Source of the DNA: a virus
Length of the DNA: 64,000 bases
IMG/VR virus record: IMGVR_UViG_3300004369_000643
Location: 1 to 64,000 of that record
Direction: 5' to 3' (one strand)
Shown here: positions 8,281-26,665 of the stretch, piece by piece
How positions within the stretch are numbered: the stretch's first letter is position 1
Layout of the letters: each line of letters opens with the position of its first letter
Program-made: the position numbers and the translations under genes
The notes under the pieces: model-generated
Told to the model about the DNA's origin: nothing
The model's input: the letters and a program-made list of their open reading frames with translations, nothing else
The model's database searches: none

Positions 8281-8313
8281 CTACGGCGGTACCACAATTA
8301 CGATAATAATCAA
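8281..8313 (-). CDS. minigene MIIIVIVVPP*
   Basis: AGGGGGTGA SD, TTG start; paralogous to 16014-16049. Confidence 0.55.
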   Translation of the reverse strand: MIIIVIVVPP

Positions 8314-8402
8314 GTGGCATCACCCCCTATCCGGTTCTTCGGGTTCATGTATTCATTGTTGCATACGGATGGCCCGCCGGTCAAATCGTAGCCATAGTTC
8401 CT

Positions 8403-8596
8403 AGAGATAGGGGTATCTCTCGGAGAGATAGGTGAATCGAACGTATGTTCGACGAACGTATGTTCGATGTTAGGTGACCTTAACACCGATAATTCCGATC
8501 AGATTAGTCGGGATATTAGGTGCGCCTAACATTGACAATCCCGATCAGATTAGTCGGGATATTAGGTGTCCCTAACATGGCGAACGCATGTTCGAT
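8403..8596. promoter_or_regulatory. operator array 1: CsoR-like site, 3 LexA boxes, 3 IdeR/DtxR-like cores, 2 IscR/Rrf2-like boxes
   Basis: CGAAC-N4-GTTCG at 8438, 8453, 8581; TTAGG-N4-C(C/T)TAA at 8470, 8516, 8562; CCGATCAGATTAGTCGG twice. Confidence 0.75.
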
Positions 8597-8817
8597 TTCT
8601 TCGACGCTGGGGACACCATAGGTTATTTATGGAGGATATGGCGAAAGCGAGTGTGGGGGCGGGTGAGAGAGTCCCGAATGGTGAAGAAAGAAAAGGCTGC
8701 AGGCAGGGTCAAATAGTCCAGCAAATAAAAATACATTGGCTGGACTGTTTCGGGGTGAAACACGGGTGGTTGGGGCATGAAAAAGCCCCCCGACTCGGTT
8801 GAGCCGGAGGGCCTTCG

Positions 8818-8838
8818 CTATGGCGGCGGTACTGCCAT
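8818..8838 (-). CDS. minigene MAVPPP*
   Basis: AAAGGGGTGA SD 6 nt before ATG; intrinsic terminator follows. Confidence 0.5.
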   Translation of the reverse strand: MAVPPP

Positions 8839-9215
8839 GTACCATCACCCCTTTCGTGGTTGGTGCGAATGGTTGGTAGTCTTTCAATCGGCTCCCCCGC
8901 ACTTCCTGTGGCACTACCTGTGCTGGGTTCTGTAGCCGTATCTTTTATGTACCTTCATACTATCGTTGGGGTGTGACAGTACCAACCTGCGGGTAGGGCT
9001 GTAACACGATTGTAACATTCACAAAAATATCCAAAAAAGTTTGCAAAAAAAGGTTGACAAACACGGGCGGGCGGGAAAGTTCGCAAAAAGTGTCGCATTT
9101 ACGAACGATTCGTGCAGCGGCAGCACGGCGAGACAGTCCAGCCGCCAAGCAGCAACTGCTGGACTGTTTCAGGGTAAACAAAAACCCCTCAGGCCGTAGC
9201 CCAAGGGGTAATGTT

Positions 9216-9262
9216 GCTAAGTTTCTGTTGCCACCTACTTAGCGAGGCCGGAACTTATCCGA
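9216..9262 (-). ncRNA. hairpin + pseudoknot motif, copy D
   Basis: CCU-loop-AGG UGGCAACAGAA; GCUAAGU pairs with ACUUAGC. Confidence 0.6.
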
Positions 9263-9265
9263 TAA

Positions 9266-9514
9266 TCACCAGTCCAACTGGAACTCGGCCATGATCTCAG
9301 CCCGAGTCATAGTCTCGTCGGTAGCGTAGTTGACTACTGCGTAGTCATCATCAGCCATATCACCGAAACAAGGCCACAAGTAGCCAGCCACCATACGGTG
9401 CCCGTTGCTACTCCACCGGTCGAACCACTGTGCGGCTGCTTCCATGATAGAATCGCACTCAATGTCGATTCCACCCGAATAGCAATAACCGCCATTCAGC
9501 GTGTAGGTAATCAT
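9266..9514 (-). CDS. hypothetical protein
   Basis: AGGAGGTGA SD, own promoter. Confidence 0.7.
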   Translation of the reverse strand: MITYTLNGGYCYSGGIDIECDSIMEAAAQWFDRWSSNGHRMVAGYLWPCFGDMADDDYAVVNYATDETMTRAEIMAEFQLDW

Positions 9515-9637
9515 CTCACCTCCTCTTCAGTTGTCAATGAACTTCTACTGTCAGGATATCAACGGGGTGTGACAATCAAAACCTGCGTACACTGCTGTAA
9601 CACGATTGTAACATTTAGGGGTTGACAAAAAGTTGAG

Positions 9638-9690
9638 CGCAGCCAACTCGCAGCCAACTCGCAGCCAACTCGCAGCCAACTCGCAGCCAA
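9638..9690. repeat. 11 bp tandem repeat CGCAGCCAACT x ~4.8
   Basis: direct reading. Confidence 0.9.
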
Positions 9691-9791
9691 GCGGCAGCAA
9701 CCTCAGACAGTCCAGCCCCCCAACCGGCAACGGCGGGACTCGCTGGGGCACAAAGAAAACCCCCACCCTCCGAAAAGAGTGGGGGAGTTCT

Positions 9792-10070
9792 TCACCAGCA
9801 GGCGTTTTCGATGTAAGCCCGCAAGTTGTAGGCTCCATCGTCACCGCCGAATGTTTCCTCGCACCATTCACCGAGTACGCTAGCAACCGCCCAGTACGCA
9901 AAAGGAATAGAAGCCTCGCCCTTTTCGTAATCCCAGACGTTGATAACTTCGCTAGGTTCGATACATTCAGGCATCGTTAGTTCGATGTACGCACCGCCGA
10001 AGTATTCGGCTCGCACGACATACGCTCCAACTCGCCATTCTGCGGTTATCACGTTTTCTATTGTTTCCAT
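9792..10070 (-). CDS. hypothetical protein
   Basis: AGGAGGTGA SD; terminator downstream. Confidence 0.7.
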   Translation of the reverse strand: METIENVITAEWRVGAYVVRAEYFGGAYIELTMPECIEPSEVINVWDYEKGEASIPFAYWAVASVLGEWCEETFGGDDGAYNLRAYIENACW

Positions 10071-10188
10071 TGTTCACCTCCTCAGGTGGTCTACCACCAC
10101 GATAGCACATCGGTGTACCAGATGTCAAACTTTAGATAATGTCACACCCATATGCTATAGTGAGGTTATCAGAAGAAATGGGGTGATT

Positions 10189-10323
10189 ATGACAACGTAC
10201 ACAGTTTGGGTTGGGGGTATCCCCGACGTTGAGCGAGTAACCTACGCCAAAGCCGTCGAAGTTTCTGACGGTTGGATTGCTGATGGATACGACGACGTGG
10301 TTATCGAAAAAGAAAGCGAGTAA
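10189..10323 (+). CDS. small hypothetical protein
   Basis: GGGGTGA SD; MTTYTVWVGG...; promoter at 10140-10161. Confidence 0.6.
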   Translation: MTTYTVWVGGIPDVERVTYAKAVEVSDGWIADGYDDVVIEKESE

Positions 10324-10355
10324 CCTACGCCAAAGCCGTCGAAGTTTCTGACGGT
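10232..10355 (+). repeat. 41 bp exact direct repeat (10232-10272 and 10315-10355)
   Basis: AGCGAGTAACCTACGCCAAAGCCGTCGAAGTTTCTGACGGT twice. Confidence 0.9.
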
Positions 10356-10594
10356 GAGTTACGGTGTAGAACCAACAACCACAACTTCAACAAGCACTAC
10401 CGTTTTGGCACGCTCTACGATACCGAAATGGCCACAACAACAACAGTAGAGCCTCATTATGAAGGCGGTCAGGGCTTTTTCGTGCCGTCGCACAGTCCCG
10501 ACATGGGGTTGGGGTCGGCTGGACTGTTTTGGGGTAGAAAGAAACCCCCAGCCCGAAAGAGGGGAGGGGGTGAGACTGAGGGTTTCTTAGATTT

Positions 10595-10780
10595 TTAGTA
10601 TTTCACTTCTACGTCGTAAGTGTTTTCCAGATACTTGACTACTTCGTCAAGTGTCATTGTGGGTAAAACTTCCTCGCTAACGTATGTGTTATTTACGCTG
10701 AGGGTTACTTCTGTAGGGTGTCCGTCGATAGTGTGTACGACGGCGTGCGTTACGTTATTATGTGTTTCTCTTCCTAGCAT
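10595..10780 (-). CDS. hypothetical protein
   Basis: AGGAGA SD before MLGRE. Confidence 0.6.
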   Translation of the reverse strand: MLGRETHNNVTHAVVHTIDGHPTEVTLSVNNTYVSEEVLPTMTLDEVVKYLENTYDVEVKY

Positions 10781-10923
10781 CTTATCTCCTGTTCTGCTAT
10801 CACTTCCTTTCGTGAAGTGTCTCGAAGGATACTTTCCTTCTTTGGTTGCTCCCAGTATACCAGAGTCGGTACATAAAAGCAACCCCTACCGGCGGATACC
10901 AGTAGGGGTTGTGGATAACTTGT

Positions 10924-11103
10924 TTATCGTCGGTCTAGTTGTTTGGCTACTTTGAGTGCCTGCTCCCTTGTGGGGAACGTGGCTCGTACTCCGTTACCGT
11001 TAGCCGTGTCGATTACTTGCCATCTGCTGCCTGTAGGCGAGAGGCGTATGTCGTATCGCTCTTTTTCCACCATACGTTTCCTTTCTGTATTGGTTGCTAT
11101 CAT
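10924..11103 (-). CDS. hypothetical protein
   Basis: ORF track; start uncertain. Confidence 0.5.
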   Translation of the reverse strand: MIATNTERKRMVEKERYDIRLSPTGSRWQVIDTANGNGVRATFPTREQALKVAKQLDRR

Positions 11104-11222
11104 CGTACCACGTCGATTATCTCTTGTCAAGTTATTCGATTGACTTGACAACGGCGAGTGTATCGGGTAAGATAGGTAACGAGATAGAGAAAGGCTCTAT
11201 CCATAAGGAAAGGTATCATCAC

Positions 11223-11453
11223 ATGATGAGAGGACAAGTAAAGTTTATCCAAGTTACCGGCAAGGTTGTCGAAGTTTGGTACGAGTCAATGACTGGCGAC
11301 AGTTCCGACTCTATCATTGACCGGCACGAATGGCACAGCCATCGTCGGGCGATGGAAGTTGCGGCTCATATTGCTGCTCCTCACGGTTGCGTTGTTCATA
11401 ACGCATGGGAAAATCGCCCTATCCTCACGCTGAATAACGACTCACTCGTGTGA
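11223..11453 (+). CDS. hypothetical protein
   Basis: AAGGAAAGG SD; terminator at ~11481-11510. Confidence 0.6.
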   Translation: MMRGQVKFIQVTGKVVEVWYESMTGDSSDSIIDRHEWHSHRRAMEVAAHIAAPHGCVVHNAWENRPILTLNNDSLV

Positions 11454-11619
11454 TGAAACCCCTCTCCGGTTCTCGGTAGCAAAACCCCCAGCCTTCGGGT
11501 TGGGGGTTTTGCTTTACCCCGAAACAGTCCAGCCCTACCCACTTCCCCCTCGGGGCTTGTTTGGGGTACGAAAAAGCCCCCACTCTCAGGACACTTTTTG
11601 AGAGTGGGGGCTTAGACTG

Positions 11620-11907
11620 TCAGCAATCGCAGTCGTAACCGACCGTGCCACAATCGGGACACTTGCTGATACAAGGAACGCACCAGCCCCAGTATTCGGG
11701 GTCAAGTACGTCGGAGAACCGGAACTCGTCGGCGGTAAATGACTCGCCACAGTCGTGGCAACCGAACTTGACGACTAGGTTATTCACCACGCCTGCTCGT
11801 TCGGCTTGCCTAACAGCCACCGCCCATACCGTACGGTAGATGGGGGAGAGACTGCTCCGGTAGGACACCCGATAGTCGGGTGCGTTGTCAATGTTACTGT
11901 AGAACAT
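11620..11907 (-). CDS. Cys-rich putative zinc-finger protein
   Basis: three CxxC pairs; SD present. Confidence 0.6.
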   Translation of the reverse strand: MFYSNIDNAPDYRVSYRSSLSPIYRTVWAVAVRQAERAGVVNNLVVKFGCHDCGESFTADEFRFSDVLDPEYWGWCVPCISKCPDCGTVGYDCDC

Positions 11908-12261
11908 TGTTCCTTCCTTCCTATGTTCGGTGGGGCTTAGCGGACTCTCACCGCTACCGGGCCTTCTGGCAAGCCCCACTTGCTTATGCCTTCATACTAC
12001 CAGCGGGGTGTGCCAATACCAACGTCGGAAACATTCTGTTCACATTCGTTCACATTCTGGAAACAATCGGAAAATGCGAAAGTTTCGCAAAAGTACGGCT
12101 GCGAGAAAAACCAGAACGGCTGCGAAAACCAGAGAAACAAGATAAAATGCGAAACATTTTACCTGTACCAACACCCCGAAACAGTCCAGCCGCAGCAGGC
12201 GGCAGTCGGGACTCATTGAGGTACAAAGAAACCCCCAGCCCGTCTGGACTGAGGGTTCTTC

Positions 12262-12384
12262 TCACTTCTTGTCCCGATACTTCTGCGCTCCTCGCTTGGG
12301 GAAGTGTCTCCCTGATGCAACAAACCGTGATGCTGTTGCGCTGATGGGGCGACGGATAGGCTCGTGACCTTGATTACCTGTCAT
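12262..12384 (-). CDS. small basic hypothetical protein
   Basis: GAAAGGA SD, terminator follows. Confidence 0.5.
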   Translation of the reverse strand: MTGNQGHEPIRRPISATASRFVASGRHFPKRGAQKYRDKK

Positions 12385-12506
12385 ATGTTTTCCTTTCTGT
12401 CTACCACCAGTATAACCCACCGCCTCCGGTTTCGCAACTTGCGTAGCCATACTGTAACCTTGTCTCAAGTATTTACACTGTCACACCCATCTGGTACACT
12501 ACAAGC

Positions 12507-12671
12507 ATGAAAGACAACGGACACAAATGGTACGCAGACGACACCGACGTTTACTGCAAACAATGCGGGTGCTACGCCGGTGGTCGATACGCCTCCGAAA
12601 CATGCGAAGCCGTGTTGTATTCTCACCACGCTAGTGCTATACTGGAAGCAGATAGAAAGGATAGGGTATGA
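12507..12671 (+). CDS. 54 aa leaderless Cys-containing protein
   Basis: ATG 6 nt after TACACT -10; overlaps next start (ATGA). Confidence 0.5.
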   Translation: MKDNGHKWYADDTDVYCKQCGCYAGGRYASETCEAVLYSHHASAILEADRKDRV

Positions 12672-12871
12672 AACAAACCACCCATCGTCCCCAACGGGTA
12701 ACCGAACTTCCTCTCGGCATTTCGGTTTCCTCCGTTCACTACGACTTAGAGTATGACGACATGAAGTCTCGGCTCAACGAGACATGCGTGTTCTTTCCCG
12801 ACGGGAACTCTCAAGTGCGTGGAACTTACGACGACCATGACAAGGTAGTCAACGAACTAATCCACGCTTGA
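12668..12871 (+). CDS. hypothetical protein
   Basis: ORF track; SD; terminator follows. Confidence 0.6.
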   Translation: MKQTTHRPQRVTELPLGISVSSVHYDLEYDDMKSRLNETCVFFPDGNSQVRGTYDDHDKVVNELIHA

Positions 12872-12902
12872 GTTGCTTGGATAGTGGCAAAGCCCTCGGC
12901 AC

Positions 12903-13475
12903 CTACGGGTGTCGGGGGTTTTTTGCTTCCCGCTGGACTGTTTCGGGGTGGATACGAACTTTGTTTCGCAGCATTGCATCGTGGAGATCAACGAATGTTT
13001 CAGATCCTAACACATTATTCACGATTGTCAAGTAGATCCTTGCGAACTCTTTGCCGTGTGCCGAGAAGTGTTGTCCGTTTTCGGCATCGCACCAACAGCA
13101 AATATGAGTTAGTTCGTGGATCAAAGTGAGATGGTTTCTGCTCCAAAGGGGTAAAGTGATGGTTGAGTAGCAACTTTCTGCGTGACGGCGACGATATCCG
13201 GGTCGAAGTTTGAGTCCCCGCCGCCGATCCCCGTGATAAAGGTAGATCAGCCGTTTGTTCGGGCGGTGTTCTTGGGGGTCAGACAGTCCAGCCGCTGCAG
13301 CGGAACCCGTCAAATACGCAGCGGTTCTAGGAAAGTTCGATAAAAACCACGAAGATTTGAGTATTTCTACCAGAAACTTCCAGCATTCGTGCAGCGAAAG
13401 ACGTTCATATTCGTCAATAAGTTCCCACTCCGCCCGGTAAAGCCGGGTTCGCTGATAGTCTCGCTCAAGTTTCAT
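12903..13475 (-). CDS. putative HEXXH metallohydrolase (TIGR04338 / Rv0185-like)
   Basis: RLYRAE N-terminus, ITLPLW, LIHELTH, AHGKEF motifs. Confidence 0.7.
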   Translation of the reverse strand: MKLERDYQRTRLYRAEWELIDEYERLSLHECWKFLVEILKSSWFLSNFPRTAAYLTGSAAAAGLSDPQEHRPNKRLIYLYHGDRRRGLKLRPGYRRRHAESCYSTITLPLWSRNHLTLIHELTHICCWCDAENGQHFSAHGKEFARIYLTIVNNVLGSETFVDLHDAMLRNKVRIHPETVQREAKNPRHP

Positions 13476-13735
13476 CCGAACCAGCGTCTGAATAAGTCAT
13501 ACTTCTTTGGAATCCATCGAAAAAGATGGCTTGTCAAGTAAAACCAGAACAGTATTAGTGATGGTCGTCCCATTTTTGATGAGGAAAACTTGTAAAAAGC
13601 GGTACTCATGGTAGAATGTTTCCCGCTTCTCAACGCTATCAGATCATAAGCAGCAATGTATGCGGCAAGTAGCAGCCACGCCCAACCACCAAAGTCTCTT
13701 GATTTACCGTTAGCACGTCCCGTCGATGGTATCAT
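13472..13735 (-). CDS. membrane protein
   Basis: two hydrophobic segments; leaderless. Confidence 0.6.
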   Translation of the reverse strand: MIPSTGRANGKSRDFGGWAWLLLAAYIAAYDLIALRSGKHSTMSTAFYKFSSSKMGRPSLILFWFYLTSHLFRWIPKKYDLFRRWFG

Positions 13736-13965
13736 AGTAGTATATTACCCCAAACATAGAACGGAGCCTTTCACCCCGTGAGATACAACAACAATACTTC
13801 ATCTGGTTATGTCCGACATCCGAAGAAAGCCTGCCAACATTCGCAGTATGTTGAGGAACGGAAGGAGTATTCGTGGCTTGCTCGCCTCGCTGAATGGGAG
13901 CGAAAGATACCAGATAGCGTGAAAAACCCACCCCGAAGGGTGGGCTAATCACGGGAGGTGAACTC

Positions 13966-14220
13966 TCAGGGGAGAGTGATGGTGTCACCGATGGTGAGGT
14001 TTGCTGTACCGTAGGTGTCCACGATGTCGCTGGTGGCTGAACCTGTATGTCCTGTACAGTACCTAGAGGCTATGCCCCATGCTGTGTCGCCGGGGTGAAC
14101 TCTCACAGTGATTGCTTCACACTCGTAGGCTGTTGCCTTGTCTAGTGCCACATCGGCTAGTCCTGCAAGGGTTAGTGTGCCGAGTGCGGTAGCGGTTATG
14201 GTTGCTATTACTTTCTTCAT
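13966..14220 (-). CDS. secreted LysM-domain protein
   Basis: signal peptide, VHPGDTAWGIA...LTIGDTITLP. Confidence 0.75.
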   Translation of the reverse strand: MKKVIATITATALGTLTLAGLADVALDKATAYECEAITVRVHPGDTAWGIASRYCTGHTGSATSDIVDTYGTANLTIGDTITLP

Positions 14221-14423
14221 GGTGCCAGTATACCCACATCGCATAGTGTTTGTCAAGTATTTTGCTTGATTTAGTGCAGGTGTCTGAATATCTCAGAGAT
14301 TATCAGGGTCGTCCTTGACCTCGATACTTCTTGCCGTAGTTCTTCGACTGCTTCTGGCGTGACGTTCCCGCCTTGGAGTGAACGCCTTTCCGCTTCACTT
14401 TCGATGTCGATGCTTTCTTCGTA

Positions 14424-14618
14424 TCAACCGCTCGTGCCATTCTTCTTTGCCTCTCGTTCTAGTCGGCGCTCTTCCGCCTGTTCGATTTCTGATTTTGTTG
14501 ACATTCTATGACCGTTTTGACACCAGACAGTAGCACCACCCAAAGTTCCAATAGTGTATTCACACTTCAGGCAGTAGTAGTTAGTTAGTCCATCTCTAGT
14601 TTTGTGTGTAAGTTGCAT
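14424..14618 (-). CDS. small zinc-ribbon protein
   Basis: CxxC...CxxxH; leaderless after TTGACA-17-TAGGAT. Confidence 0.55.
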   Translation of the reverse strand: MQLTHKTRDGLTNYYCLKCEYTIGTLGGATVWCQNGHRMSTKSEIEQAEERRLEREAKKNGTSG

Positions 14619-15026
14619 GAGAGTCATCCTATCGAATACGGCGGGACTTGTCAAGAGTGTCAGTAATCGGTATTCTACCACCAAATATGTACGAATAGTG
14701 AAAAGTATTAGTGTAACCTAGTTTTATGACTACGATGCAACGTTTACAAGCAGCAACTTTTGTTGCTTTTTGCTGCGAACCTGATATAGTGTGGCGAGAT
14801 ATTGCCGAACTACTGTGCTTGGGATATGAGCCGGTCGATTTCGATGTGTCCCAACTGGTCAGCGAGTCCCGCAGCGGGATACTCGCCTGACTTCTCGCAG
14901 CCGCTGCCGCAGCCAAACCGTGCTGCTCGCAGCCGAACTCGGTGAAAACTTCCAACTTTTTGATGTTTCTTCGCTGGGGTGTTGGTACAGGTTGCGAAAC
15001 CTGCCCCCTGCTGATATACTGGACTC

Positions 15027-15841: not shown

Positions 15842-15940
15842 CTGTTCTTTCCTTTCTTCTTGATACTGTCATAGTATCAGCGAGGTGTGTCGATCACAAC
15901 CTGTCTCGGTCGATGTAACACGACTGTAACAAAGTGGGTT

Positions 15941-15986
15941 GACCGGTTCTGTTGCCACGCTCCGGTCAGCGCCGACTCTCAGTCGG
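15941..15986 (-). ncRNA. hairpin + pseudoknot motif, copy E
   Basis: loop GACCGG pairs with CCGGUC. Confidence 0.6.
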
Positions 15987-16013
15987 GGGTGGTGAGGTGC
16001 TGTAGCCTCACGG

Positions 16014-16049
16014 CTACGGCGGCTCCACGATTATGATGATCATCATCAA
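16014..16049 (-). CDS. minigene MMMIIIIVEPP*
   Basis: perfect AGGAGGTGA SD, TTG start. Confidence 0.55.
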   Translation of the reverse strand: MMMIIIIVEPP

Positions 16050-16144
16050 GTGGAATCACCTCCTGTCCGGTTCTCTTTCATGACTTCATCTTACCGTTCC
16101 CCCCACGTTCGACAACCTGTGCCGACCGATTTTGTGTCTCTAGT

Positions 16145-16719
16145 AGAGATACCCCCTATCTCTGATAGATATGGGGCGGCTCACAGCAGGAAGGCACGGC
16201 ACTCGCCGTGCTACTCGCCTGTCGGCGGGCGAACCGACCGAGTGTAGATCGGCACCCCTCATGTCAAGTCGAAGCAATCGAACACATGTTCGATCAGAGC
16301 CGACCTCACCCGACCGAACACATGTTCGATCCGACCGAAACCCGACCGAACTAGTCGGGAATCAAACCCGACCAACCTAGTCAACAATCAAAAGCCGACC
16401 AACTAGGTCAACAATCAAACCCGACTGAACTAGTCGGGAATCGAAACCCGACCAAACCAGTCAACAATCAAAAGCCGACCAACTAGGTCAACAATAAAAG
16501 CCGACCAGAACAGTCGGGAATCAAAGCCGACCAGAACAGTCGGGAATCAAAGCCGACCAAACCGGTCGGGAATCAATCGAACACACGTTCGATCCGAACG
16601 AGAACGTGAACACAATCACAAAGCGAACACATGTTCGATCAACAACACCAACAATCGAACAAACGTTCGATCAACCAAAGCCGACCCCAATGTTACAGTT
16701 TGATGACAAACTTGACAAA
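16145..16719. promoter_or_regulatory. operator array 2: CsoR-like site, 5 LexA boxes, 9 tandem IscR/Rrf2-type boxes, PhoB/OmpR-like direct repeats
   Basis: CGAAC-N4-GTTCG at 16279, 16315, 16578, 16624, 16656; CCGAC-N7-GTC(GG/AA) x9 at 16338-16573. Confidence 0.75.
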
Positions 16720-16822: not shown

Positions 16823-18709
16823 TCATGGTTTGGTGTTGAGTATGTTTTGGATTGCGGTTTGGGTGATGGCTGGTTGTGTTTTTTGGGTTTTGTTTTGTAG
16901 GGTGTTGTAGATGTGTTGGTCTATGGTGTTGGGGTTGATGAGGTTGTGTATTGTGGCGGGTTGTGTTTGTCCGATGCGGTGGATTCGGGCGCAGGTTTGG
17001 TGGTATTTGGCGGGTGTCCATGGGGCTTCGATGAAGAGCATGTTGTTTGATGCGGTTAGGGTGTGTCCGTGTGCTGCTGCGTCTATGGAGATGACGATGT
17101 TTTTGCAGTTTGTGTTATTCATGAATTCGTGTTTTGCGGTTTCGGTCTTTTGGGGGTTTTGGCCTCCGATGATCATTGGGGCGTTTAGTTCGTTGGCTAG
17201 GGTTTGTACTATGTGGCGGTGGTGGGCGGCGATGACTATTTTTTGTCCTGAGTTGTTGGCGTTTTCGATCCATTCTAGGGCGTGGGGGATTTTGGATTGG
17301 GCGGCGATTTTTCTGAGTTCTGTGAGTTGGATGAGGTTTTCGTAGTTTTGTGTTGCGTAGTGTGCTCGGATTCGGGCGGCTGTGGGGTTGGTGCCTTCGT
17401 TGATGGCGAGTTGTTCTTGTTGTTGTGTGTACCATTCTTGGAGGTCGTTGAGGGCGTGGTTGTACATTGTGCGGTGTTTTTTGTCCATTGTGGTGTGGAT
17501 GGTGTTGTATGTGATTGGTGGTAGGTCGGTGAGGACGTGTTGTTTTTCTCTGCGGATGTAGCAGTGGGTTTGTAGTTTGTTGAGTAGTTCTTTGTTGTTG
17601 GTTGATCCGTGTATTTGCCAGTGTCCCCAGTTGTCTCTGTAGGCTCCGCAGTAGCGTTTGTAGAAGTTCCAGCGGCCTCCGAAGTTGTCGATGTGTCCTA
17701 GGATTTCTAGTTGGGGTGCGTATTCGGCGGGCATGTTGGTGATGGGGGTGCCGGTGAGGAGTAGGATGTTGCCGGTGGTTGGGATGTTTTTTGCTATGTT
17801 TTTGGCGGCTTTTGTTCGTTGTGCGTCTGGGTTTTTGCAGTAGTGTGATTCGTCTAGGATGAGTGTGTTGTGGTGTTGGTTGTTGAGGTGTTGTTTTTGG
17901 GCGTGGATGTTGGGGTATCCGATGATGGTGTAGTCGGTTTCGGTCAGTTCGGGGGTTTTGCGGCCTTCGATGATTTGGATGGTGCGGTGGGGGAGTGCTT
18001 CTTGGATTTTTGTTTTCCAGTCTTCTGTGAGGCTGGTGGGGCAGATGATGAGGGCGGGGTATTGGTTTGTGTATTCTGTGGTGGCTAGGGCTTGGAGTGA
18101 TTTGCCTAGTCCCATTTCGTCTGCGATGAAGGTGCGTTGTTTTTCGGCGGCGTATGCTACGCCTGCTTTTTGGTAGGGGTAGAGTTGTAGTTGTAGGTTG
18201 GGGATGGTGATGTTTGCGTCGGTTGCTTGGGTGAGTTCTTGGGCGTGTTGTGCTTTTTTGGTTTCGATTTCTGCTTGTGTTTGGATGTGTTCGGGTATGG
18301 GGTGGTTGTATTTGTTTGCCCATTGGATGAGTTCGTGTACGTTGTTGTATGGTGTTTCCCAGTGGTTGTGGTGGGGGTTCCATTTGATGCCGGGGATGGC
18401 TTTGAGTTCGTGGATTTGTAGTGTGTCGTAGGGGACGCTGATTTTTAGGATGTCTTTTTCGAGTCTTATGGTGGTAGCCCCGATTGGGTGGTCGGGTAGT
18501 TGTAGGCGTATTAGTTCTTCGTCCACGTCGATGTTCCATGAGTTGGCGAAGGATATGGCTCGTTTTAGGGCTGGGAGGGGTATTGTCCAGTGTTTGTTGA
18601 GTTTGTCCCAGCGTGCGTGTGGGAATGATGTTTTGAGGGCTGTTATTTCGTCTTTGTTGTATGGTGTGTCTAGGACGAGTTGTGTGCCGTTTAGGTAGAG
18701 TCGTTTCAT
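16823..18709 (-). CDS. SNF2-family (SMARCAL1/HARP-like) helicase
   Basis: ADEMGLGKS, LDESH, LTGTP, Q-x-x-ARIHRIGQ; N-terminal HARP-like W repeats; start at MKRLY. Confidence 0.9.
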   Translation of the reverse strand: MKRLYLNGTQLVLDTPYNKDEITALKTSFPHARWDKLNKHWTIPLPALKRAISFANSWNIDVDEELIRLQLPDHPIGATTIRLEKDILKISVPYDTLQIHELKAIPGIKWNPHHNHWETPYNNVHELIQWANKYNHPIPEHIQTQAEIETKKAQHAQELTQATDANITIPNLQLQLYPYQKAGVAYAAEKQRTFIADEMGLGKSLQALATTEYTNQYPALIICPTSLTEDWKTKIQEALPHRTIQIIEGRKTPELTETDYTIIGYPNIHAQKQHLNNQHHNTLILDESHYCKNPDAQRTKAAKNIAKNIPTTGNILLLTGTPITNMPAEYAPQLEILGHIDNFGGRWNFYKRYCGAYRDNWGHWQIHGSTNNKELLNKLQTHCYIRREKQHVLTDLPPITYNTIHTTMDKKHRTMYNHALNDLQEWYTQQQEQLAINEGTNPTAARIRAHYATQNYENLIQLTELRKIAAQSKIPHALEWIENANNSGQKIVIAAHHRHIVQTLANELNAPMIIGGQNPQKTETAKHEFMNNTNCKNIVISIDAAAHGHTLTASNNMLFIEAPWTPAKYHQTCARIHRIGQTQPATIHNLINPNTIDQHIYNTLQNKTQKTQPAITQTAIQNILNTKP

Positions 18710-19587
18710 GTTCTGTTTTTGGGGTAGGGGTAGGTTTTGTTGTTTTGTTCGAATTGTTTTTTGAGTTGTTTGGTTTCTTTTTTGTTTTGTCCTAAGATGA
18801 GTGCGTATTTGTGTTTTGCGGGTACTTGTACGGGTGTTGCGTTTGCTTGTACGGTTTTGCTGTGTTGGCGTAGTTGTTGTTCGATGTGGTCGGGTATGTT
18901 GTTCCAGATGATGGTGCTGTCTCTGTTCCAGTTGGGTTGCCATTCGATGTTGAGTTCTTTAGCGTATTTTTTGTATGCTGATCTTGCTCGGAAGAAGCGG
19001 TCTGATACGACTTTGCCTGAGTAGGGGTTGATGTAGCGGGTTGTGCCGCCTGAGTTTTGGCCGAGGTAGTAGAAGTTGCAGGCTTGGTATACGGTGCCTA
19101 GTTCTTTTGCGAGGGGGTCTGAGTAGGCGGTGAATAGGCGGTATTGTGTGTTTTGTACCATCCATTTAATTGACCACATGATGAAGGCGCTTGCAAGGTT
19201 TTTGGGTGACCATGAGATGCAGGCTCCTCGTCCGATGAGGCGTTCTATTTCTTTTGTGTTGTCGCCTAGTAGTTTGCTGAAGGCGTTGGGCATACTGAAT
19301 AGGAGTACGCCTGCGAGTTGGTTGTTGTGGTATGCGCCGAACCAGTGTGTGGTGTAGAGGCTTGTTGTGCCTAACCATTCGTGGCGTTTGATGAATTCTG
19401 TTGCGTCTTTGTGTTCTTGTTCTGTGGTTAGGGGTGTGAATGTGAAGTCGTTGACTGTGAGTAGTTGTGCTTGTTGTAGGGTGATGCCTGCTTGTTGTAG
19501 GTCTTCGTCTAGGTTTTGTAGACGCATTTCGTATTGCCAACAGTGTTCTTTGTTGTATGCCCGTAGTTCGGGGATTGTGGGTGTCAT
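18706..19587 (-). CDS. Mom-like GNAT-fold DNA modification enzyme
   Basis: FIKRHEWLG, PKNLAS, AYSDP...GTVYQACNFYYLG motifs of the Mu Mom family. Confidence 0.7.
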   Translation of the reverse strand: MTPTIPELRAYNKEHCWQYEMRLQNLDEDLQQAGITLQQAQLLTVNDFTFTPLTTEQEHKDATEFIKRHEWLGTTSLYTTHWFGAYHNNQLAGVLLFSMPNAFSKLLGDNTKEIERLIGRGACISWSPKNLASAFIMWSIKWMVQNTQYRLFTAYSDPLAKELGTVYQACNFYYLGQNSGGTTRYINPYSGKVVSDRFFRARSAYKKYAKELNIEWQPNWNRDSTIIWNNIPDHIEQQLRQHSKTVQANATPVQVPAKHKYALILGQNKKETKQLKKQFEQNNKTYPYPKNRT

Positions 19588-19904: not shown

Positions 19905-19943
19905 ACGTGCTATTTTATCACATACACCGATTGGTGGCAAATT

Positions 19944-20918: not shown

Positions 20919-21002
20919 GCCCCTATTTTACCACTTTTCTTTCTGCCATCATACAAACTCATCGTTTACCCTGATGAGTCGCTATGCTTTCATGTTGTTA
21001 TT

Positions 21003-21863
21003 TTACACTATTTTTTCTGCGGCGTCTAGGGTGTTGATGTGTGAGTACACTAGGCTGTCCATTGTTTGTGACATGGTGTAGCCTCCGGCGAGTACGTATG
21101 CGATGGGAATGTTGTATTGTTTTGCCCATTGGAATACGATGTTGTCTCGTTCGGCTAGTGTCTGGTGTGTGATTGTGGGGTAGGGGTCTGTTCCTGCATT
21201 ATACAAAATGACTCTTGTGTTGAGTTTAACTTTGTCTAATGTTTCGTTTACGGCGTCGATGTATTCGGTGTCTGATCGTGCGATTTTGATGTTGTGTGTT
21301 TCATCTTGGTCGTATTCGTCAAATCCGTTTGTTGAGATGTCGTATTGTTCTACTCTGTCATCTATGTTGAGGTGCCGTAACATGTTAACTGTTCCTCCTC
21401 CGCAGTGGGCGTCGAAGTCTAGAATGGTGACGTGGTGGTCGAATAGCCAGTTTGCTGTTACTGCTAGTCCGTTTACTGTGCAGAATCCTGAGCCGTGTTT
21501 GTGGTCGGCGTGGTGTAGCCCTGATGAGAGGCTTCCTGCTACAGTGTTGTGGTCTATTGCGTGTGCGGCGGCTGACATTACTCCTGCTGTGGAGTTGAGT
21601 ACCATCTGGTAGATTCCGTAATCCCATTTGAACCCGTTACTTTCGGCTAGGTATAGAGGGTCTCCCTTTTCTAGCGAGTCGAAGTATAGTCCGTCTAGCG
21701 CTGTTTTGATTTCAACGTAGGCGTCTTTGGTCATGTTTGTGGGATCGGTTACGTTTTCTTCACCGATTGTTTTTACGATTTCTTCGCTTTTTCGTGTTGT
21801 ATCAAAGGCGTGCTCTGCGCCAGTGTAATGTTTGTTCCAATAAATGGGGTGGGTGTATGTCAT
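21003..21863 (-). CDS. histone-deacetylase-family hydrolase
   Basis: GLHHA, GSGFC, LDFDAHCGGGT, YNAGTD, GGY. Confidence 0.9.
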   Translation of the reverse strand: MTYTHPIYWNKHYTGAEHAFDTTRKSEEIVKTIGEENVTDPTNMTKDAYVEIKTALDGLYFDSLEKGDPLYLAESNGFKWDYGIYQMVLNSTAGVMSAAAHAIDHNTVAGSLSSGLHHADHKHGSGFCTVNGLAVTANWLFDHHVTILDFDAHCGGGTVNMLRHLNIDDRVEQYDISTNGFDEYDQDETHNIKIARSDTEYIDAVNETLDKVKLNTRVILYNAGTDPYPTITHQTLAERDNIVFQWAKQYNIPIAYVLAGGYTMSQTMDSLVYSHINTLDAAEKIV

Positions 21864-21876
21864 TGTGCTCCTTTCT

Positions 21877-22557
21877 TCAGGGCGCAACTTTGTAGTTTTG
21901 TACAAAGTGTTGATATGTGACGGGCATGTGTGATGATAGGAAATGTTCGACTGCATATGCGTATTGACGGATTTCCCATTGTGCGGTTTCGTCTGCCCGT
22001 AGGTTAATAAAGTTCATTAACGCTCTTGCGTTTGTTGTTGCGTAGAACTCTGTGTATGTTGATACAGGGAGTACCATGCGTGCTACTTCTTTTGCTACTC
22101 CTTGTTCTAGAAGTTTTTGGTATGTTGTGAATGATTCGTCATATGACTTAACCATTACGTCTTTAGAGAACTGAGGGTTTTCTAAAGGTTCGAATGTGTA
22201 GGCTCCGGGTTTACCTACCTGACTGCGTATTTGCTGACTGTCAGGTAGGTAGGCTACGGCGGGTAGTTCACTGTAGCGCCCTGAGTATTCGTTGTATGAC
22301 CAACCTATACGGTGTCTGAACCATTCTCGCACCACAAAGATGGGTGCTTTGATGTGGAAACGAAAGAAGTTGTGTTCGAAAGGGGTTCCGTGCTTTTCTC
22401 TCATGAGGAAGCCGATTAGTCCTTTGTCTCGTTCTGTCATTTCTGTTTGTGTTGCTCCGAAACTAACTCTTGCAGCGTTCACTACTGACAGGTCGTCAGC
22501 ATTTACTGCGTCTAGTCGCACGAAGCCGTGGTCTAACACTGTAAGTTGGTTTGTCAT
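21877..22557 (-). CDS. thyX: flavin-dependent thymidylate synthase
   Basis: HGTPFEH, RHR-x7-SGRY, EVARMVLP, AQWEIR. Confidence 0.95.
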   Translation of the reverse strand: MTNQLTVLDHGFVRLDAVNADDLSVVNAARVSFGATQTEMTERDKGLIGFLMREKHGTPFEHNFFRFHIKAPIFVVREWFRHRIGWSYNEYSGRYSELPAVAYLPDSQQIRSQVGKPGAYTFEPLENPQFSKDVMVKSYDESFTTYQKLLEQGVAKEVARMVLPVSTYTEFYATTNARALMNFINLRADETAQWEIRQYAYAVEHFLSSHMPVTYQHFVQNYKVAP

Positions 22558-23150
22558 CAGACGTTTACTCCGAAGTTACGATTGTAGACATGGAAGTCTG
22601 TCTTCTTGCGGGGTGCCTTCAAGTATATAGGGCCGTCGTATGCGCCGTGCTCAATGATGTGCTCTTGCAATTCATGGGGCAGGTGTTGGGGTAGTAGTAC
22701 TCCTTCGTCATGCATGTCGGTGTCTACGTATGTGAGGTGAGCCTTGTGGCGGAAGTCGGTTCTTCCACCGAAGTCTTCAATCCAATAAACCTTTTGTCCC
22801 TTTTCTTGTAGTTCTTGAGCCAAGGGCAAGCAGGCATCGAACTTCCATCTAACTGATCGTTCGTTGGTTCCGTCAGTAATCACGGGGATGTCTTGAGGGA
22901 TTCCTAGAATGGGCGAGATGTGTTCGTTTGCGTTTTCTCTCCACGTGGTCAACCAGTATAGGTCGGTACTCATGTACAGCCCTTGTATCAGTGCCATCAT
23001 GTATTCGGGCACCCATACGGTGTAACCGTTGGCCTTGTAGGGAAGTGTTTCTGCATCAAAGTTAATGTCACCTCGTGTGTATAGGTGGTTGATGCTGTTG
23101 ATAACACCGTCTACGTCAAGAAAAACTGCGTATTCATTTGTTGCTTCCAT
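22557..23150 (-). CDS. HAD-family phosphatase (Swiss-army-knife RNA repair-like)
   Basis: FLDVDGV, WLTTW, K, WIED. Confidence 0.8.
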   Translation of the reverse strand: MEATNEYAVFLDVDGVINSINHLYTRGDINFDAETLPYKANGYTVWVPEYMMALIQGLYMSTDLYWLTTWRENANEHISPILGIPQDIPVITDGTNERSVRWKFDACLPLAQELQEKGQKVYWIEDFGGRTDFRHKAHLTYVDTDMHDEGVLLPQHLPHELQEHIIEHGAYDGPIYLKAPRKKTDFHVYNRNFGVNV

Positions 23151-23346
23151 ATTAATCTCCTTTTCTTATGGTTACCCAATTTTAACATGTTTTAACATAT
23201 TTGTCAAATTGGGGCTATAAATGCTGTGACCCCAGCCGTTTGGCCGGGGTCACGTCCTCCAAGGAAATACCCAAAGTGCTGTTTGTGTATTATGAGAGGA
23301 ATATCTATATTATACGTTACCGTTTGACATGTGTCAAATGTTACAT

Positions 23347-25149
23347 TTACCAGTTTATCACTTCGTCGTCAAACTCTTCGTTTTCTAACGCTTTGTTTAA
23401 CTCCTCATCGGTTCTTCCACTTTTTACCGTGGAGTTATATTGTGAGAACTCTACAACTTCAAAAGGCCATGTGTCTCCCCGTTTACAAAGAGCAGGCCAT
23501 TCTCTGGCTTCTCGCTGTCCACGATAGTGCTTGAACTCAATTAGTTCAGGGTCTGTGGGGTCAGGCGCTAGGGCGATACCGAACTCTGACCATCGTGACC
23601 ATACTGCTGAACCGAAAGGACGAAGGTCACGTTGACCTCCAGAACCTAAGGGAGCATGATGCTCAATCCATAGCGCACAGTTGTATGTATGTCTGAGGTA
23701 GTCTAAGAATCTTGCAATTTCGATAGATACCGATTCTGCTGTACGACCACCGGGATCAATGAACGCTTTGTAGAGAGGGCCGAAGAATAGGATGTCAGGC
23801 TGGATTGCCGCAACGTGTTCTTCTATCATTGCTCTGTCTGCAGGTAGCAGTAGGTTAACTCCGTCAGGTTTCATAAGTAGATGAGCGTCCATGCTTTCAT
23901 GCTTTTCGAACCATTTTATTTTGTCATAGATGCGCATTGATGTACGCCTAATAATTCGTTCAGGGTTTTCTAAGTCGATCATTAACGTTCGTGCAGGCTT
24001 CATTACATCTCGTCTAAAGGGATGGATGCCTGCGGCAGACATGAGCGCAACCTGTCGTGCAAGAGTGGTTTTACCTGCACCTTCGGCGGCAACAACAATA
24101 ACTCGTTCTTGTCGCTCTAACACATTGGGAATAACCCAGTCGTACGATAGGTCAACGTCTGTTTCTAAGAAGGGAGTCCACTCTACAAGGTTACCGTTGT
24201 CCTTATACTGTCTGTCTTTTTGTGAGATGAATGCATCTAGGCTTGATGCAACACGCCCCATTAGAACACCTGAAGCCAAGTCTTGATCTTTCAGTTCTGA
24301 CAGATCGTAGATAAGTTTGTCTAAGGGTGACTCTAATTCTTCTGTAGCCACATCTTCTTCGATGCTGGTATCAAAAGGAATTAAACTGTCGCTTAGTTCT
24401 TCACCAGCAGCAATTAGATCGGAAACGTCCTTATGCTTTCCGGGCTTGAATACTTTAACTTTACATCCGGCTTCGGTCAGCATCTTGTTTACTGATCGTG
24501 CATGGAGATACCCTGCTTCGTCGTTATCACTAATAATGATAACGTTGGCCTCTGCAAGTGCGTCGGTGTGATGGCTCATCCATTTGTTTTGACCTTCAGC
24601 ACCGGCACCACCGGGATTTGTAGTCGCAGTCTTACCTAGTTCCTCAAGGGAGTGTACGTCTTTCTCACCTTCAACAACATAGATGGGGCGACCCTCTTCT
24701 TTGGCCGCAAGAACCTGAGGAAGCCGATACAGGGGCTTCTCTAAGTCAGATGTTGACCAGTTCCACCCGCCGTTCTGGTCGGGCTGACGTTGGCGGAATG
24801 TTTTCTTACCACGCTCGTCTACGAACCTGAGAACTTCCATCACTAACTCACCCTCAGCATTGTAATAAGGGTAGGTATCTAATAAGTCTAACTTCTGCTT
24901 CTTGGGTGCTTTAGTTTCCTGAGGAAAAAGGTCTGACGTGGAGATATCAATAGATTCACAAATCTCGTTAAGGTCACAGCCTCCACCTCTAAGGCACTTC
25001 ATAAGCACTTGGCCTTGTCGCCCTACGGACACACGGAGTGAGGGGTTATCGTCGTCAACTCGGCAAGGGCATGTGGCATCCCACTGGTTGTCTCCAGACT
25101 TTCGTGTGTTTAGTCGTGCTAATACGTTATCAATGGGTTCCATGTCCAT
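23347..25149 (-). CDS. primase (TOPRIM)-helicase (AAA/RecA-like) fusion
   Basis: N-terminal Zn finger, VEGEKD, DND, GAGKT, RPFGS. Confidence 0.9.
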   Translation of the reverse strand: MDMEPIDNVLARLNTRKSGDNQWDATCPCRVDDDNPSLRVSVGRQGQVLMKCLRGGGCDLNEICESIDISTSDLFPQETKAPKKQKLDLLDTYPYYNAEGELVMEVLRFVDERGKKTFRQRQPDQNGGWNWSTSDLEKPLYRLPQVLAAKEEGRPIYVVEGEKDVHSLEELGKTATTNPGGAGAEGQNKWMSHHTDALAEANVIIISDNDEAGYLHARSVNKMLTEAGCKVKVFKPGKHKDVSDLIAAGEELSDSLIPFDTSIEEDVATEELESPLDKLIYDLSELKDQDLASGVLMGRVASSLDAFISQKDRQYKDNGNLVEWTPFLETDVDLSYDWVIPNVLERQERVIVVAAEGAGKTTLARQVALMSAAGIHPFRRDVMKPARTLMIDLENPERIIRRTSMRIYDKIKWFEKHESMDAHLLMKPDGVNLLLPADRAMIEEHVAAIQPDILFFGPLYKAFIDPGGRTAESVSIEIARFLDYLRHTYNCALWIEHHAPLGSGGQRDLRPFGSAVWSRWSEFGIALAPDPTDPELIEFKHYRGQREAREWPALCKRGDTWPFEVVEFSQYNSTVKSGRTDEELNKALENEEFDDEVINW

Positions 25150-25597
25150 ACCTTTCTAGTATCCATGCTTCTCGTGTCTTTTCGTACAAAGATATAAACA
25201 TAGCACGATCTGCGTTGGTTGTCAAGGCGGTAGCGTTTGTTCCCAATCGTTTGATGGTTTCTGATAAAACTGCATGGGGCTTGCTGTAATCGTACGTACC
25301 GCTATAAATTTTTTGTCCGATTGCTTGAAGTACAGTCCATGCTTCTTCAGGCTCGGGAGGGAGTTCTTCTCCGCTTACTTTTGCTAATACAATGGTGCGG
25401 AGTTCTCCGGGTCGGGGTAACCATTTCTTTCCTGAGATTCCCATCTCTTTGATGGTGTCTCTGACTGCCTCGTACTCTAGATCGTTAATGTATTCCCAGT
25501 AACCTTTCATTCTGATGGTTAGTGAGGCGTTGTCTAGTGACTGGTTCCATGTCACGCTGAGTAGTTCTACTACGTTTTTACATTCATTCTTGTCCAT
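25130..25597 (-). CDS. replicative helicase loader/inhibitor-like (G39P-like) protein
   Basis: W..., P-x-P-x-ELR, PEEAW pattern; adjacent to primase. Confidence 0.55.
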   Translation of the reverse strand: MDKNECKNVVELLSVTWNQSLDNASLTIRMKGYWEYINDLEYEAVRDTIKEMGISGKKWLPRPGELRTIVLAKVSGEELPPEPEEAWTVLQAIGQKIYSGTYDYSKPHAVLSETIKRLGTNATALTTNADRAMFISLYEKTREAWILERYGHGTH

Positions 25598-25688
25598 ACT
25601 TACAGACTACACTCCTTTTGCTCAAATGTCAATACCAAAGAAGAAGCCCCCCTTTCGGGGGGCGTTACTCCTTTCTGCTAGGTGGCTA

Positions 25689-26123
25689 TCAGAAATCCTC
25701 GAAAGGATCGCTGCTAGGAACTGTGGCCTTCTGGCGAGGCGCAGGGCGGTTTGAACCGCCACCTCCACCACCTGCACGGCGGCGCTCAAGGCTTTCAATT
25801 CCGATGGTATTGACAGCAACGGTGTCGGCAACAATTTCGACAGTGGAGCGCTTTTCGCCTTCGGCGTTCTCCCACGAGCGCTGTTCAAGTCTACCCTTAA
25901 TAACTACGGGGGTACCCTTTTCCAGCACGTTAGCGGCCATCTCTGCGATTCCTCGCCATGCCACTACGTTGAAGAAACTTGTCTCTTCCTGCCATTCGCC
26001 GTTGACCTGAAAGCGCTTGTTTGACGCAATTGAAAACGACAAACGTGCGTTGCCGTTGGCGGCAAACTTCAGTTCGGGGTCGGCGGTAACGTTACCGGTT
26101 ACTGTAATATCTGCATTGCTCAT
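25689..26123 (-). CDS. ssb: single-stranded DNA-binding protein
   Basis: ITVTGNVTADPEL, FFNVVAW, Gly linker, acidic tail. Confidence 0.95.
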   Translation of the reverse strand: MSNADITVTGNVTADPELKFAANGNARLSFSIASNKRFQVNGEWQEETSFFNVVAWRGIAEMAANVLEKGTPVVIKGRLEQRSWENAEGEKRSTVEIVADTVAVNTIGIESLERRRAGGGGGGSNRPAPRQKATVPSSDPFEDF

Positions 26124-26181
26124 TATCTTCTCCTATCATGTTTGCTATTTGCAGTTCCCTGTTTTCAGGGACATCTGTATA

Positions 26182-26595
26182 TTACTTTATGTTGTCAGCC
26201 GTGTCAATACCTGTTTCTGTTTCCTCATCATCGGTCGTGGAAAGCAGCGACTCTACCGCTTCTGCATAGGGGGTACCTTGCTTGTAGGATTCGTGTAATT
26301 TTTCCAGATGACTGATGCGCTCCGTAGGGTCGAAGATTGCTGCTAGCAGACGTTGTTGCGCAAATGACTCGGCGTTAGCCTGATATTCGTCTGTCACTTT
26401 TTCAACTTTTGCCCTAAGTTCGTCTAGCATGAACTGTAGTCCTGCCACACGTTTGAATAGTGAGTGAGTGTCGTAGGAGTATTCTTTTCTTGCTAAGTTT
26501 CGGATAGTTTTTTTGTGTGACATGATGGCAAACTCTAAGTCTTCAAATGCTTCTAGCATTGCTTCATGTGCTTTTGTTTGTGTTTTGTAATTCAT
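26182..26595 (-). CDS. hypothetical coiled-coil protein
   Basis: ORF track. Confidence 0.6.
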   Translation of the reverse strand: MNYKTQTKAHEAMLEAFEDLEFAIMSHKKTIRNLARKEYSYDTHSLFKRVAGLQFMLDELRAKVEKVTDEYQANAESFAQQRLLAAIFDPTERISHLEKLHESYKQGTPYAEAVESLLSTTDDEETETGIDTADNIK

Positions 26596-26650
26596 AATTT
26601 TTCCAATCTGTTAGTGTTGTTTACTGTTGTTAATGTTTGTGTTTAAGTAG

Positions 26651-26665
26651 TTACGGGGGTTCCAT
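26651..26665 (-). CDS. minigene MEPP*
   Basis: AAAGGAG-aagat-ATG GAA CCC CCG TAA. Confidence 0.4.
   Translation of the reverse strand: MEPP

Follow-up and report, generated by a model that had tools for sequence, protein, structure and literature searches.

Candidate Pro-Pro-stop mini-genes with conserved reading frames and hairpins in the early region of an IMG/VR phage contig

Introduction

Ribosome pausing at Pro-stop and Pro-Pro-stop endings has so far been described for a handful of leader peptides and engineered proteins. TnaC of E. coli, an upstream open reading frame (ORF) of 24 residues, stalls at termination with Pro before the stop codon, and uORF2 of human cytomegalovirus UL4 ends in Pro-Pro-stop. 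Natural bacterial upstream ORFs ending in Pro-stop, such as the NSP-stop and NAP-stop ORFs of Bacteroidota, stall with the stop codon in the ribosomal A site, and the sequence LPPP likewise stalls ribosomes (PMC10987492). A C-terminal Pro-Pro disturbed termination in every E. coli context tested and led to a stop-codon cleavage that needs trimming by 3' exonucleases up to the ribosome (PMC3834316). Here, we analyze four mini-ORFs, designated A, B, C, and D, each preceded by a Shine-Dalgarno sequence (SD) and ending in Pro-Pro-stop, on the minus strand of the IMG/VR virus record IMGVR_UViG_3300004369_000643. The stretch under study, referred to as the window, comprises the first 64 kb of this 102,594-base contig.

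Mini-ORFs A, B, and C share with the Pro-stop stall upstream ORFs the short frame, the conserved C-terminal Pro before the stop codon, an expected stall at the point where the stop codon occupies the A site, and effects that would be exerted just downstream. Unlike the known bacterial examples, which are leaders of a downstream gene and mostly longer, A and C apparently stand alone and comprise 10 to 11 codons, and the Pro codons of A, B, and C double as pairing partners of the SD in front of their own frame. The ending is identical to that of the YbeL-PP model (PMC3834316), in which, however, it was engineered or incidental, whereas here it is conserved in dedicated mini-genes with a stable structure at once downstream. 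This structure should block the 3' trimming that leads to stop-codon cleavage in YbeL-PP. The RAPP/RGPP arrest peptides (ApdA, ApdP, and SecM-like peptides; PMC10987492), some of them from Actinobacteria, also carry Pro-Pro at the arrest point, but they arrest elongation, not termination. Membership in this group was rejected, as the Arg-Ala/Gly-Pro-Pro motif is absent from the endings VVPP, VEPP, and VPPP found here.

We consider it likely, judging from the pattern of sequence conservation, that A, B, and C contain translated frames on which selection acts. Our best explanation, taken whole and including the mechanism outlined below, is that they are cis-acting termination-pause mini-genes; we hold this tentatively, with slightly less than even confidence. 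Dedicated units built on Pro-Pro-stop, 6 to 11 codons long, are maintained in this phage, and their Pro codons also lock the SD of the unit. If the pause is real, these units would be among the smallest natural arrest units known and could serve as compact parts for the control of termination, read-through, and RNA lifetime.

Frequency and relatedness of the mini-ORFs

All four mini-ORFs had been proposed in an initial annotation of the window, and all four are present at the positions given there (Table 1), with an SD 6 to 12 nucleotides (nt) upstream of the start codon in each case. A scan for an SD 5-mer, a gap of 4 to 12 nt, and a start codon opening a frame of at most 12 codons that ends in Pro-Pro-stop yielded exactly A, B, C, and D in the window and none in the rest of the contig. 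As a control, 200 dinucleotide-preserving shuffles were made over the whole window or within 2-kb blocks. The mean count was 0.29 and 0.26, respectively, compared with 4 observed, and no shuffle out of 200 reached 4. The frequency is thus far above chance, in agreement with the earlier proposal. None of the 138 ORFs of at least 100 amino acids (aa) in the contig ends in Pro-Pro. The base following the stop codon is C in A, B, C, and the two orthologs described below (5/5 copies), and C is the rarest base at this position among the same 138 ORFs (27/138).

A and C are paralogs of one unit of about 150 nt, 77% identical over about 135 nt, and a covariance model of the unit matches both end to end. 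The TTG start, the Ile/Val run, the 6-bp stop hairpin, and the downstream pseudoknot that the annotation had assigned to both were all found. B shares with them the extended SD, the spacing from SD to start, and the hairpin design. The four mini-ORFs are not independent but represent about two independent families plus D. The two families correspond to two related designs: Met, seven hydrophobic residues, Val or Glu, and Pro-Pro-stop in A and C, and Met, one or two residues, and Val-Pro-Pro-Pro-stop in B.

Table 1. Mini-ORFs and associated features in the window (predicted folds and consensus matches as indicated)
Feature	Position	Strand	Remarks
Mini-ORF A, MIIIVIVVPP-stop	8281..8313	-	TTG start; UAG stop followed by C
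Promoter-like site of A, TTGACC, 18 nt, AACAAT, with TG	8355..8384	-	Consensus match only
Extended SD of A, 10 nt, complementary to the 16S tail save one G.U	8319..8328	-	Sequence
Hairpin P1 of A, -16.3 kcal/mol	8283..8326	-	SD arm pairs with Val-Pro-Pro codons; ORF in upper stem and loop
6-bp hairpin containing the A stop codon	8269..8284	-	Stacks directly on P1; also in C and L196
Small hairpin and H-type pseudoknot behind A	8204..8263	-	Model R1, 58.7 bits; tmRNA-type module
Mini-ORF B, MAVPPP-stop	8818..8838	-	ATG start; UAG stop followed by C
Extended SD of B	8845..8852	-	Sequence
Hairpin P1 of B, -13.9 kcal/mol	8822..8849	-	SD arm pairs with Pro codons
Strong intrinsic terminator behind B	8778..8815	-	Stem starts 2 nt past the B stop codon; z = -3.9
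Mini-ORF C, MMMIIIIVEPP-stop	16014..16049	-	TTG start; UAG stop followed by C
Promoter-like site of C, weak	16088..16115	-	8/12 matches, by eye; absent from consensus scan output
Extended SD of C, perfect 10-nt complement of the 16S tail	16055..16064	-	Sequence
Hairpin P1 of C, -17.1 kcal/mol	16018..16060	-	Predicted fold
Hairpin over the C stop codon	16002..16017	-	Predicted fold
Hairpin and pseudoknot behind C	15938..15996	-	Model R1, 50.8 bits
Mini-ORF D, MEPP-stop	26651..26665	-	ATG start; ordinary SD; 56 nt before a 137-aa ORF

Orthologs and codon-level selection

Relatives were reached via the SNF2 helicase encoded just upstream of C, which has many close homologs; 36 metagenome and 12 IMG/VR loci were fetched (L-numbers denote loci of related contigs). 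L196 carries an ortholog of C at 13332-13367 (MMLIVIIVEPP-stop, ATG start), together with the conserved leader, the extended SD, the stop hairpin, the pseudoknot, and a promoter at 13263-13290 with 11/12 consensus matches. This C-type unit lies about 1.4 kb beyond the helicase gene, compared with about 0.8 kb for C. L194 carries an ortholog of B at 10838-10861 (MNTVPPP-stop), and its terminator stem likewise begins 2 nt past the stop codon (z = -4.4). Conservation of Pro-Pro-stop at homologous loci, which the initial annotation had named as a check, was borne out by both orthologs: PP-stop or PPP-stop is kept in 5/5 copies despite a nucleotide divergence of 20 to 25% and synonymous changes in the Pro codons.

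Codons were compared within two sets, A/C/L196 and B/L194 (five sequences). Start codons vary only between TTG and ATG and stop codons only between TAG and TAA. The synonymous changes comprise ATA/ATC, GAG/GAA, CCG/CCT, and two CCG/CCA exchanges, and there are conservative replacements (M/L and I/V). Both indels inside the frame measure exactly 3 nt, and a 2-nt length change between C and L196 is situated immediately before the start codon, outside the frame. The minimum numbers of changes at codon positions 1, 2, and 3 are 6, 2, and 14 (chi-square p = 0.006), and a Monte Carlo test gave p = 0.0007 for the combination of few position-2 and many position-3 changes. This distribution and the preservation of start, stop, and frame argue for selection on translation, not on RNA shape alone. 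The hairpin formed by the SD and the mini-ORF is also present in all five copies (-14 to -19 kcal/mol). In L196 it adopts a shifted register, in which CCUCC pairs with GGGGG, and compensatory changes give B and L194 upper stems built of different base pairs. This pattern indicates selection on the reading frame as well as on the hairpin.

Maintenance of the hairpin in 5/5 copies with compensatory changes would also be expected if the hairpin were the selected entity, for instance, as a processing or protein-binding site, and the readings of a G-rich arm as SD, of a C-rich arm as Pro-Pro, and of an A/U-rich self-complementary top as Ile, Val, and Met were incidental. The upper stem is made up of the partly palindromic AUG/AUC runs, and 3/5 copies precede a well-supported structured RNA, both of which fit a by-product of RNA structure. 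However, such a by-product should not have substitutions with a period of three bases in register with the mini-ORF (6/2/14, p = 0.006), exchange start and stop codons only for other starts and stops, or confine a 2-nt indel to a place just outside the frame while the indels inside it remain in frame. In addition, the SD and its spacing match those of real early genes of the same phage group. An overlapping plus-strand frame (8107-8391) cannot explain the periodicity, as its third positions coincide with position 1 of the mini-ORF. On this evidence, we regard a purely structural origin of the mini-ORFs as quite unlikely.

The final sense codon is fixed within each family, CCG in A, C, and L196 and CCA in B and L194, and CCG is the rarest Pro codon in the long ORFs of the phage itself (14%). 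Such constancy is what would be expected of trans-acting minigene toxins for host takeover, which would be translated at a high rate, with a ribosome, peptidyl-tRNA-Pro, or a release or rescue factor tied up in each round while phage genes are spared. Like lambda bar and CreT (PMC2490762, PMC8501985), the units combine strong initiation, a tiny ORF, and a stem-loop behind it on a phage or mobile element. In particular, A and C, which apparently stand alone and combine a very strong SD with a short ORF and, directly after it, a stem-loop, have the layout of CreT (PMC8501985), and the units come and go among relatives in the manner of accessory genes. However, bar and CreT have frames of 2 to 6 codons, and their action requires one specific rare codon regardless of the peptide encoded, whereas the B family comprises 6 to 7 and the A/C family 10 to 11 codons, with conserved residues and a hidden SD. 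Minigene drop-off and toxicity fall steeply from 2 to 8 codons (PMC2490762), which disfavors frames of the A/C length. Synonymous changes abolish CreT function (PMC8501985), whereas the penultimate Pro codons drift here (CCG to CCU and CCG to CCA). A tRNA trap needs no selection on hydrophobic residues, but second codon positions are almost invariant in the mini-ORFs, and a hairpin that hides the SD opposes translation at a high rate. Taken together, these points make a toxin role in trans unlikely.

Conservation at the residue level, comprising the hydrophobic run and the (V/E)PP end, might also be read as a sign of active micropeptides, whose short hydrophobic Pro-Pro-capped products would act as inhibitors or on membranes. 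Peptides of 10 to 11 residues are too short to span a membrane, however, and the B family (6 to 7 residues) is devoid of the hydrophobic run, so that the ending is the common denominator. The mini-ORFs also lack a signal or processing context, and we find active micropeptides very improbable. Classification as type I toxin mRNAs was likewise rejected, since membrane insertion takes about 20 aa or more, compared with the 6 to 11 residues encoded here.

Searches for further members of the two families covered several collections. Blastn of both regions against 50,697 GenBank phages gave no match. Pattern scans of IMG/VR returned unrelated or chance matches for the stop hairpin, one match for the SD plus start, an ordinary gene start, mostly coding regions of small viruses for the SD/Pro helix, one locus with a 2-codon frame for the leader plus SD, and zero matches for the B unit. 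Among 185,579 bacterial and archaeal genomes, the leader-plus-SD pattern had 9 matches, scattered over unrelated phyla and lacking both frame and knot in every case, a number close to a rough chance estimate of about 4 to 5. No related loci were found with the 190-aa early protein, and a covariance model of the entire A/C unit detected no extra copy over 50 loci. On an unrelated-looking IMG/VR contig (L228:5090-5121, minus strand), a 22-nt leader-plus-SD identical to that of A is followed by MS-stop and no pseudoknot; this may be a chance match or a diverged relative.

Signals and RNA structure of the units

The extended SD, RGG(R)GGUGA, is found on only 5 ORFs in the 102.6 kb, 3 of which are A, B, and C. 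Consensus scans located promoter-like sites 25 to 30 nt ahead of the SD in A and in the L196 copy, and a transcript begun at the site of A would carry about 25 nt of leader in front of its SD. Hairpin P1 of A, B, and C (-14 to -17 kcal/mol) has the G-rich SD arm paired with the final codons of the frame and contains the start codon and the remainder of the ORF in its upper stem and loop. The layout behind A, C, and the L196 copy is the same and consists of the stop hairpin abutting P1, a C-rich linker, a small hairpin, and an H-type pseudoknot. From this arrangement, A and C each appear to form a short early transcript of their own, made up of promoter, leader of about 25 nt, the strongest SD type, ORF, and RNA structure.

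The Ile/Val run of A and C recalls an ilv-type leader attenuator. This candidate was rejected, since scans gave no terminator directly behind the ORF, no alternative helices were identified, and there are no biosynthetic genes downstream.

The downstream pseudoknot and its relation to transfer-messenger RNA

Besides the copies behind A and C (Table 1), the R1 model detected three copies of the hairpin-plus-pseudoknot module in the contig, at 6968-7026, 7904-7963, and 9213-9272, all on the minus strand. The module is about 55 nt long, and 5/5 copies are situated directly behind a stop codon, those of ORFs of 77, 53, and 82 aa in addition to A and C. As all five knots follow stop codons, A and C hold the position of a translated gene. 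Two of the copies are followed by intrinsic terminators, and in one relative the knot is placed between two genes.

The knot core pattern occurs at 77 IMG/VR loci, 43 of which are distinct, and 7/7 pairs of the second stem covary. At the non-tmRNA loci among them, an ORF of 41 to 178 aa usually ends 4 to 54 nt upstream. At the remaining ones, the element forms the last knot of permuted (two-piece) transfer-messenger RNAs (tmRNAs) called by ARAGORN and directly follows their tag frame. In an alignment it matches the 3' end of the Rfam alpha_tmRNA model, and it shares the invariant strand and loop, as well as the place after the ORF stop, with the 3' pseudoknot of the coding piece of two-piece tmRNA (RF01849/RF04321). 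By this alignment, the knot is the same module that ends two-piece tmRNA. Unlike in two-piece tmRNA, it is a separate module here, with no tRNA-like domain, and it is a generic 3' element that also stands behind ordinary protein genes in many phages. None of the 43 distinct loci elsewhere has an SD-led Pro-Pro-stop frame upstream of the knot. An Rfam search gave no match at gathering scores, around A a limit of E = 10 added no meaningful one, and the module is not an Rfam family of its own. In 141 sampled Actinomycetes and 3 alphaproteobacterial genomes, no knot was found in the scored subset of candidates, a result that is uninformative on the host. The link to tmRNA offers a way to ask what a widespread uncatalogued 3' element does at terminating ribosomes.

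The order of ORF, stop hairpin, and knot in A and C matches that of the ARAGORN-called two-piece tmRNAs of IMG/VR, and a stop codon within a hairpin, followed by a pseudoknot, is a tmRNA-like feature. A and C might be remnants or imitations of a tmRNA message part, as is also suggested by the L080 contig, in which a canonical YALAA-stop tag end directly precedes the same knot. We judge this reading highly improbable. No tRNA-like domain was detected anywhere in the contig (ARAGORN found none, and RF00023 matches only the T-arm of tRNA-Leu), and tmRNA identity of A and C was rejected on this ground. Equally, their frames were rejected as tmRNA tag frames: tag frames lack an SD and a start codon, whereas A and C have both, and their peptides end in Pro-Pro instead of a degradation tag. 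Furthermore, the same knot stands behind ordinary protein genes both here and in many phages.

The L080 frame (L080:9540-9640, plus strand) is part of a phage contig with six tRNAs and received no ARAGORN tmRNA call; it may represent a missed or unusual phage tmRNA.

Proposed mechanism and points that weigh against it

From the conserved frames, the codon pattern, and the hairpins we infer translation itself, a pause at its end, and the consequences of this pause. In the cis-acting reading that we favor, the Pro codons would serve twice, placing Pro-Pro before a weak stop signal (UAG or UAA followed by C), a setting in which peptide release is slow, and pairing with the SD. In free RNA, the SD and the start codon would be locked within the hairpin. 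A ribosome would load during transcription, before the 3' arm exists. It would read a few codons and then dwell at Pro-Pro-stop. The parked ribosome would block re-formation of the hairpin, cover about 10 nt past the stop codon, and keep the downstream structure open. After release, the hairpin would shut the frame.

The consequences would differ between the families. In B, the ribosome would cover the 5' arm of the terminator, so that RNA polymerase reads through, and the unit would operate as an attenuator tuned by the speed of Pro-Pro synthesis and of release. In A and C, it would sit on the stop hairpin, with trimming blocked by the stable structures farther downstream, leaving a long-lived complex and RNA. 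The ribosome on the 5' side and the knot on the 3' side would then chiefly determine how long the small RNA lasts and whether it is translated again.

Leaders with proline codons and translation-coupled attenuators are represented by mgtL/mgtP of Salmonella and the pyrBI leader. B resembles them in that consecutive Pro codons end a few nucleotides before an intrinsic terminator. It differs in that no antiterminator helix was identified and in that a repeat array and another mini-gene unit lie downstream instead of a defined operon.

Several observations weigh against this cis-acting reading. A hairpin that buries the SD and the start codon could equally mean that the frames are rarely or never translated. 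Because the A and C units have no gene to regulate, a role in cis is clear in geometry only for B, and for B the consensus scan confirmed no promoter. The L196 copy appears, by eye, to end in a U-poor hairpin that is absent from the terminator scan output. The conservation rests on five sequences in two families, and A, C, and L196 are of common ancestry. Pairing between the SD and the Pro arm was not significant when compared with shuffled Pro arms, which pair about equally. Since G-rich and C-rich neighbors pair in almost any order, SD-Pro pairing alone is no evidence of design, and the upper stem, not the SD-Pro arm, is the informative part of the hairpin. Finally, a salt-marsh metatranscriptome library contains one 229-nt contig that spans 15880-16108, including C, with one mismatch. 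It is only a hint of C expression, and DNA carry-over is possible. The evidence from public runs consists of assembled contigs; uncovered parts carry no meaning.

In a more far-reaching reading, the phage would make autonomous small RNAs that each park a ribosome. Pro-Pro-stop would hold the ribosome, the Pro codons would serve as an anti-SD, about one round of translation would be allowed, and the hairpin and tmRNA-type knot would seal the 3' side. We consider this doubtful. If true, the stalled complex would resist trimming and rescue, and the RNAs might act in early infection as timers or sensors of the host capacity for Pro, elongation factor P, release, or rescue, or as sinks for these factors.

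Mini-ORF D

D differs from the other mini-ORFs in several respects. Its SD is ordinary, it has no hairpin (-3.5 kcal/mol, z = 0.02), and roughly one in four shuffled windows would be expected to contain such an ORF. D lies within a segment of about 1 kb (~26,154-27,177) in whose place the closest relatives, L196 and L197, have about 90 nt, and no ortholog of D or of the downstream 137-aa ORF was found among the relatives compared. D is probably a chance or unrelated upstream ORF outside the A/B/C family. The proposal of deliberate, translated Pro-Pro-stop mini-genes put forward in the initial annotation is thus supported by frequency and conservation for A, B, and C; it does not extend to D, which fits chance and is absent from relatives. 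The ~26154-27177 segment has a GC content of 42% and contains, in addition to D and the 137-aa ORF, two copies of a palindromic operator-like repeat.

Distribution of the units and genomic setting

The presence of the units varies among relatives. L194 has the B unit and no C-type unit, and L196 has the C-type unit and no detected B unit. In L217, a repeat array directly precedes a 53-aa gene with no A unit; therefore, repeat array and mini-gene unit are separable. A seawater DNA contig from another sample joins position 8752 to 9172 and skips B with its leader and terminator, which makes the B unit look like a cassette gained or lost between repeats. A second joint skips 8014-8452, with just 22 letters on one side. 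From this distribution, the units behave as cassettes among relatives.

Direct repeats of a ~16-nt motif (GAAACAGTCCAGC core) flank the B unit at 8743-8760 and 9155-9175 (minus strand). The L217 array (L217:4770-5000, plus strand) consists of about a dozen GTTAGG-type repeats, and the 53-aa gene behind it is the one that follows A in the present contig.

The contig belongs to an uncultured marine phage. Its portal protein is about 40% identical to those of Brevibacterium and Gordonia phages, and its nearest DNA relatives were recovered from metagenomes of seawater and salt marsh. Positions 1 to ~27,000 carry leftward early and replication genes, and many very small genes, repeats, and non-coding RNA are packed into 5-17 kb.

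The SNF2 helicase ORF (16823-18943, minus strand) has an N-terminal extension of about 80 residues of low complexity, rich in T, Q, H, R, and K, that is lacking in its 628-aa homologs. The extension coincides with a sharp switch in strand composition at ~16.7 kb. Between the helicase gene and the C unit (16394-16673, minus strand) is an array of 26- to 27-bp units, each a short hairpin followed by T-rich sequence, with 8 terminator-like matches compared with 1.3 expected. Most related contigs stop within a few hundred bases past the helicase gene, and either this array or a genome end seems to break the assemblies.

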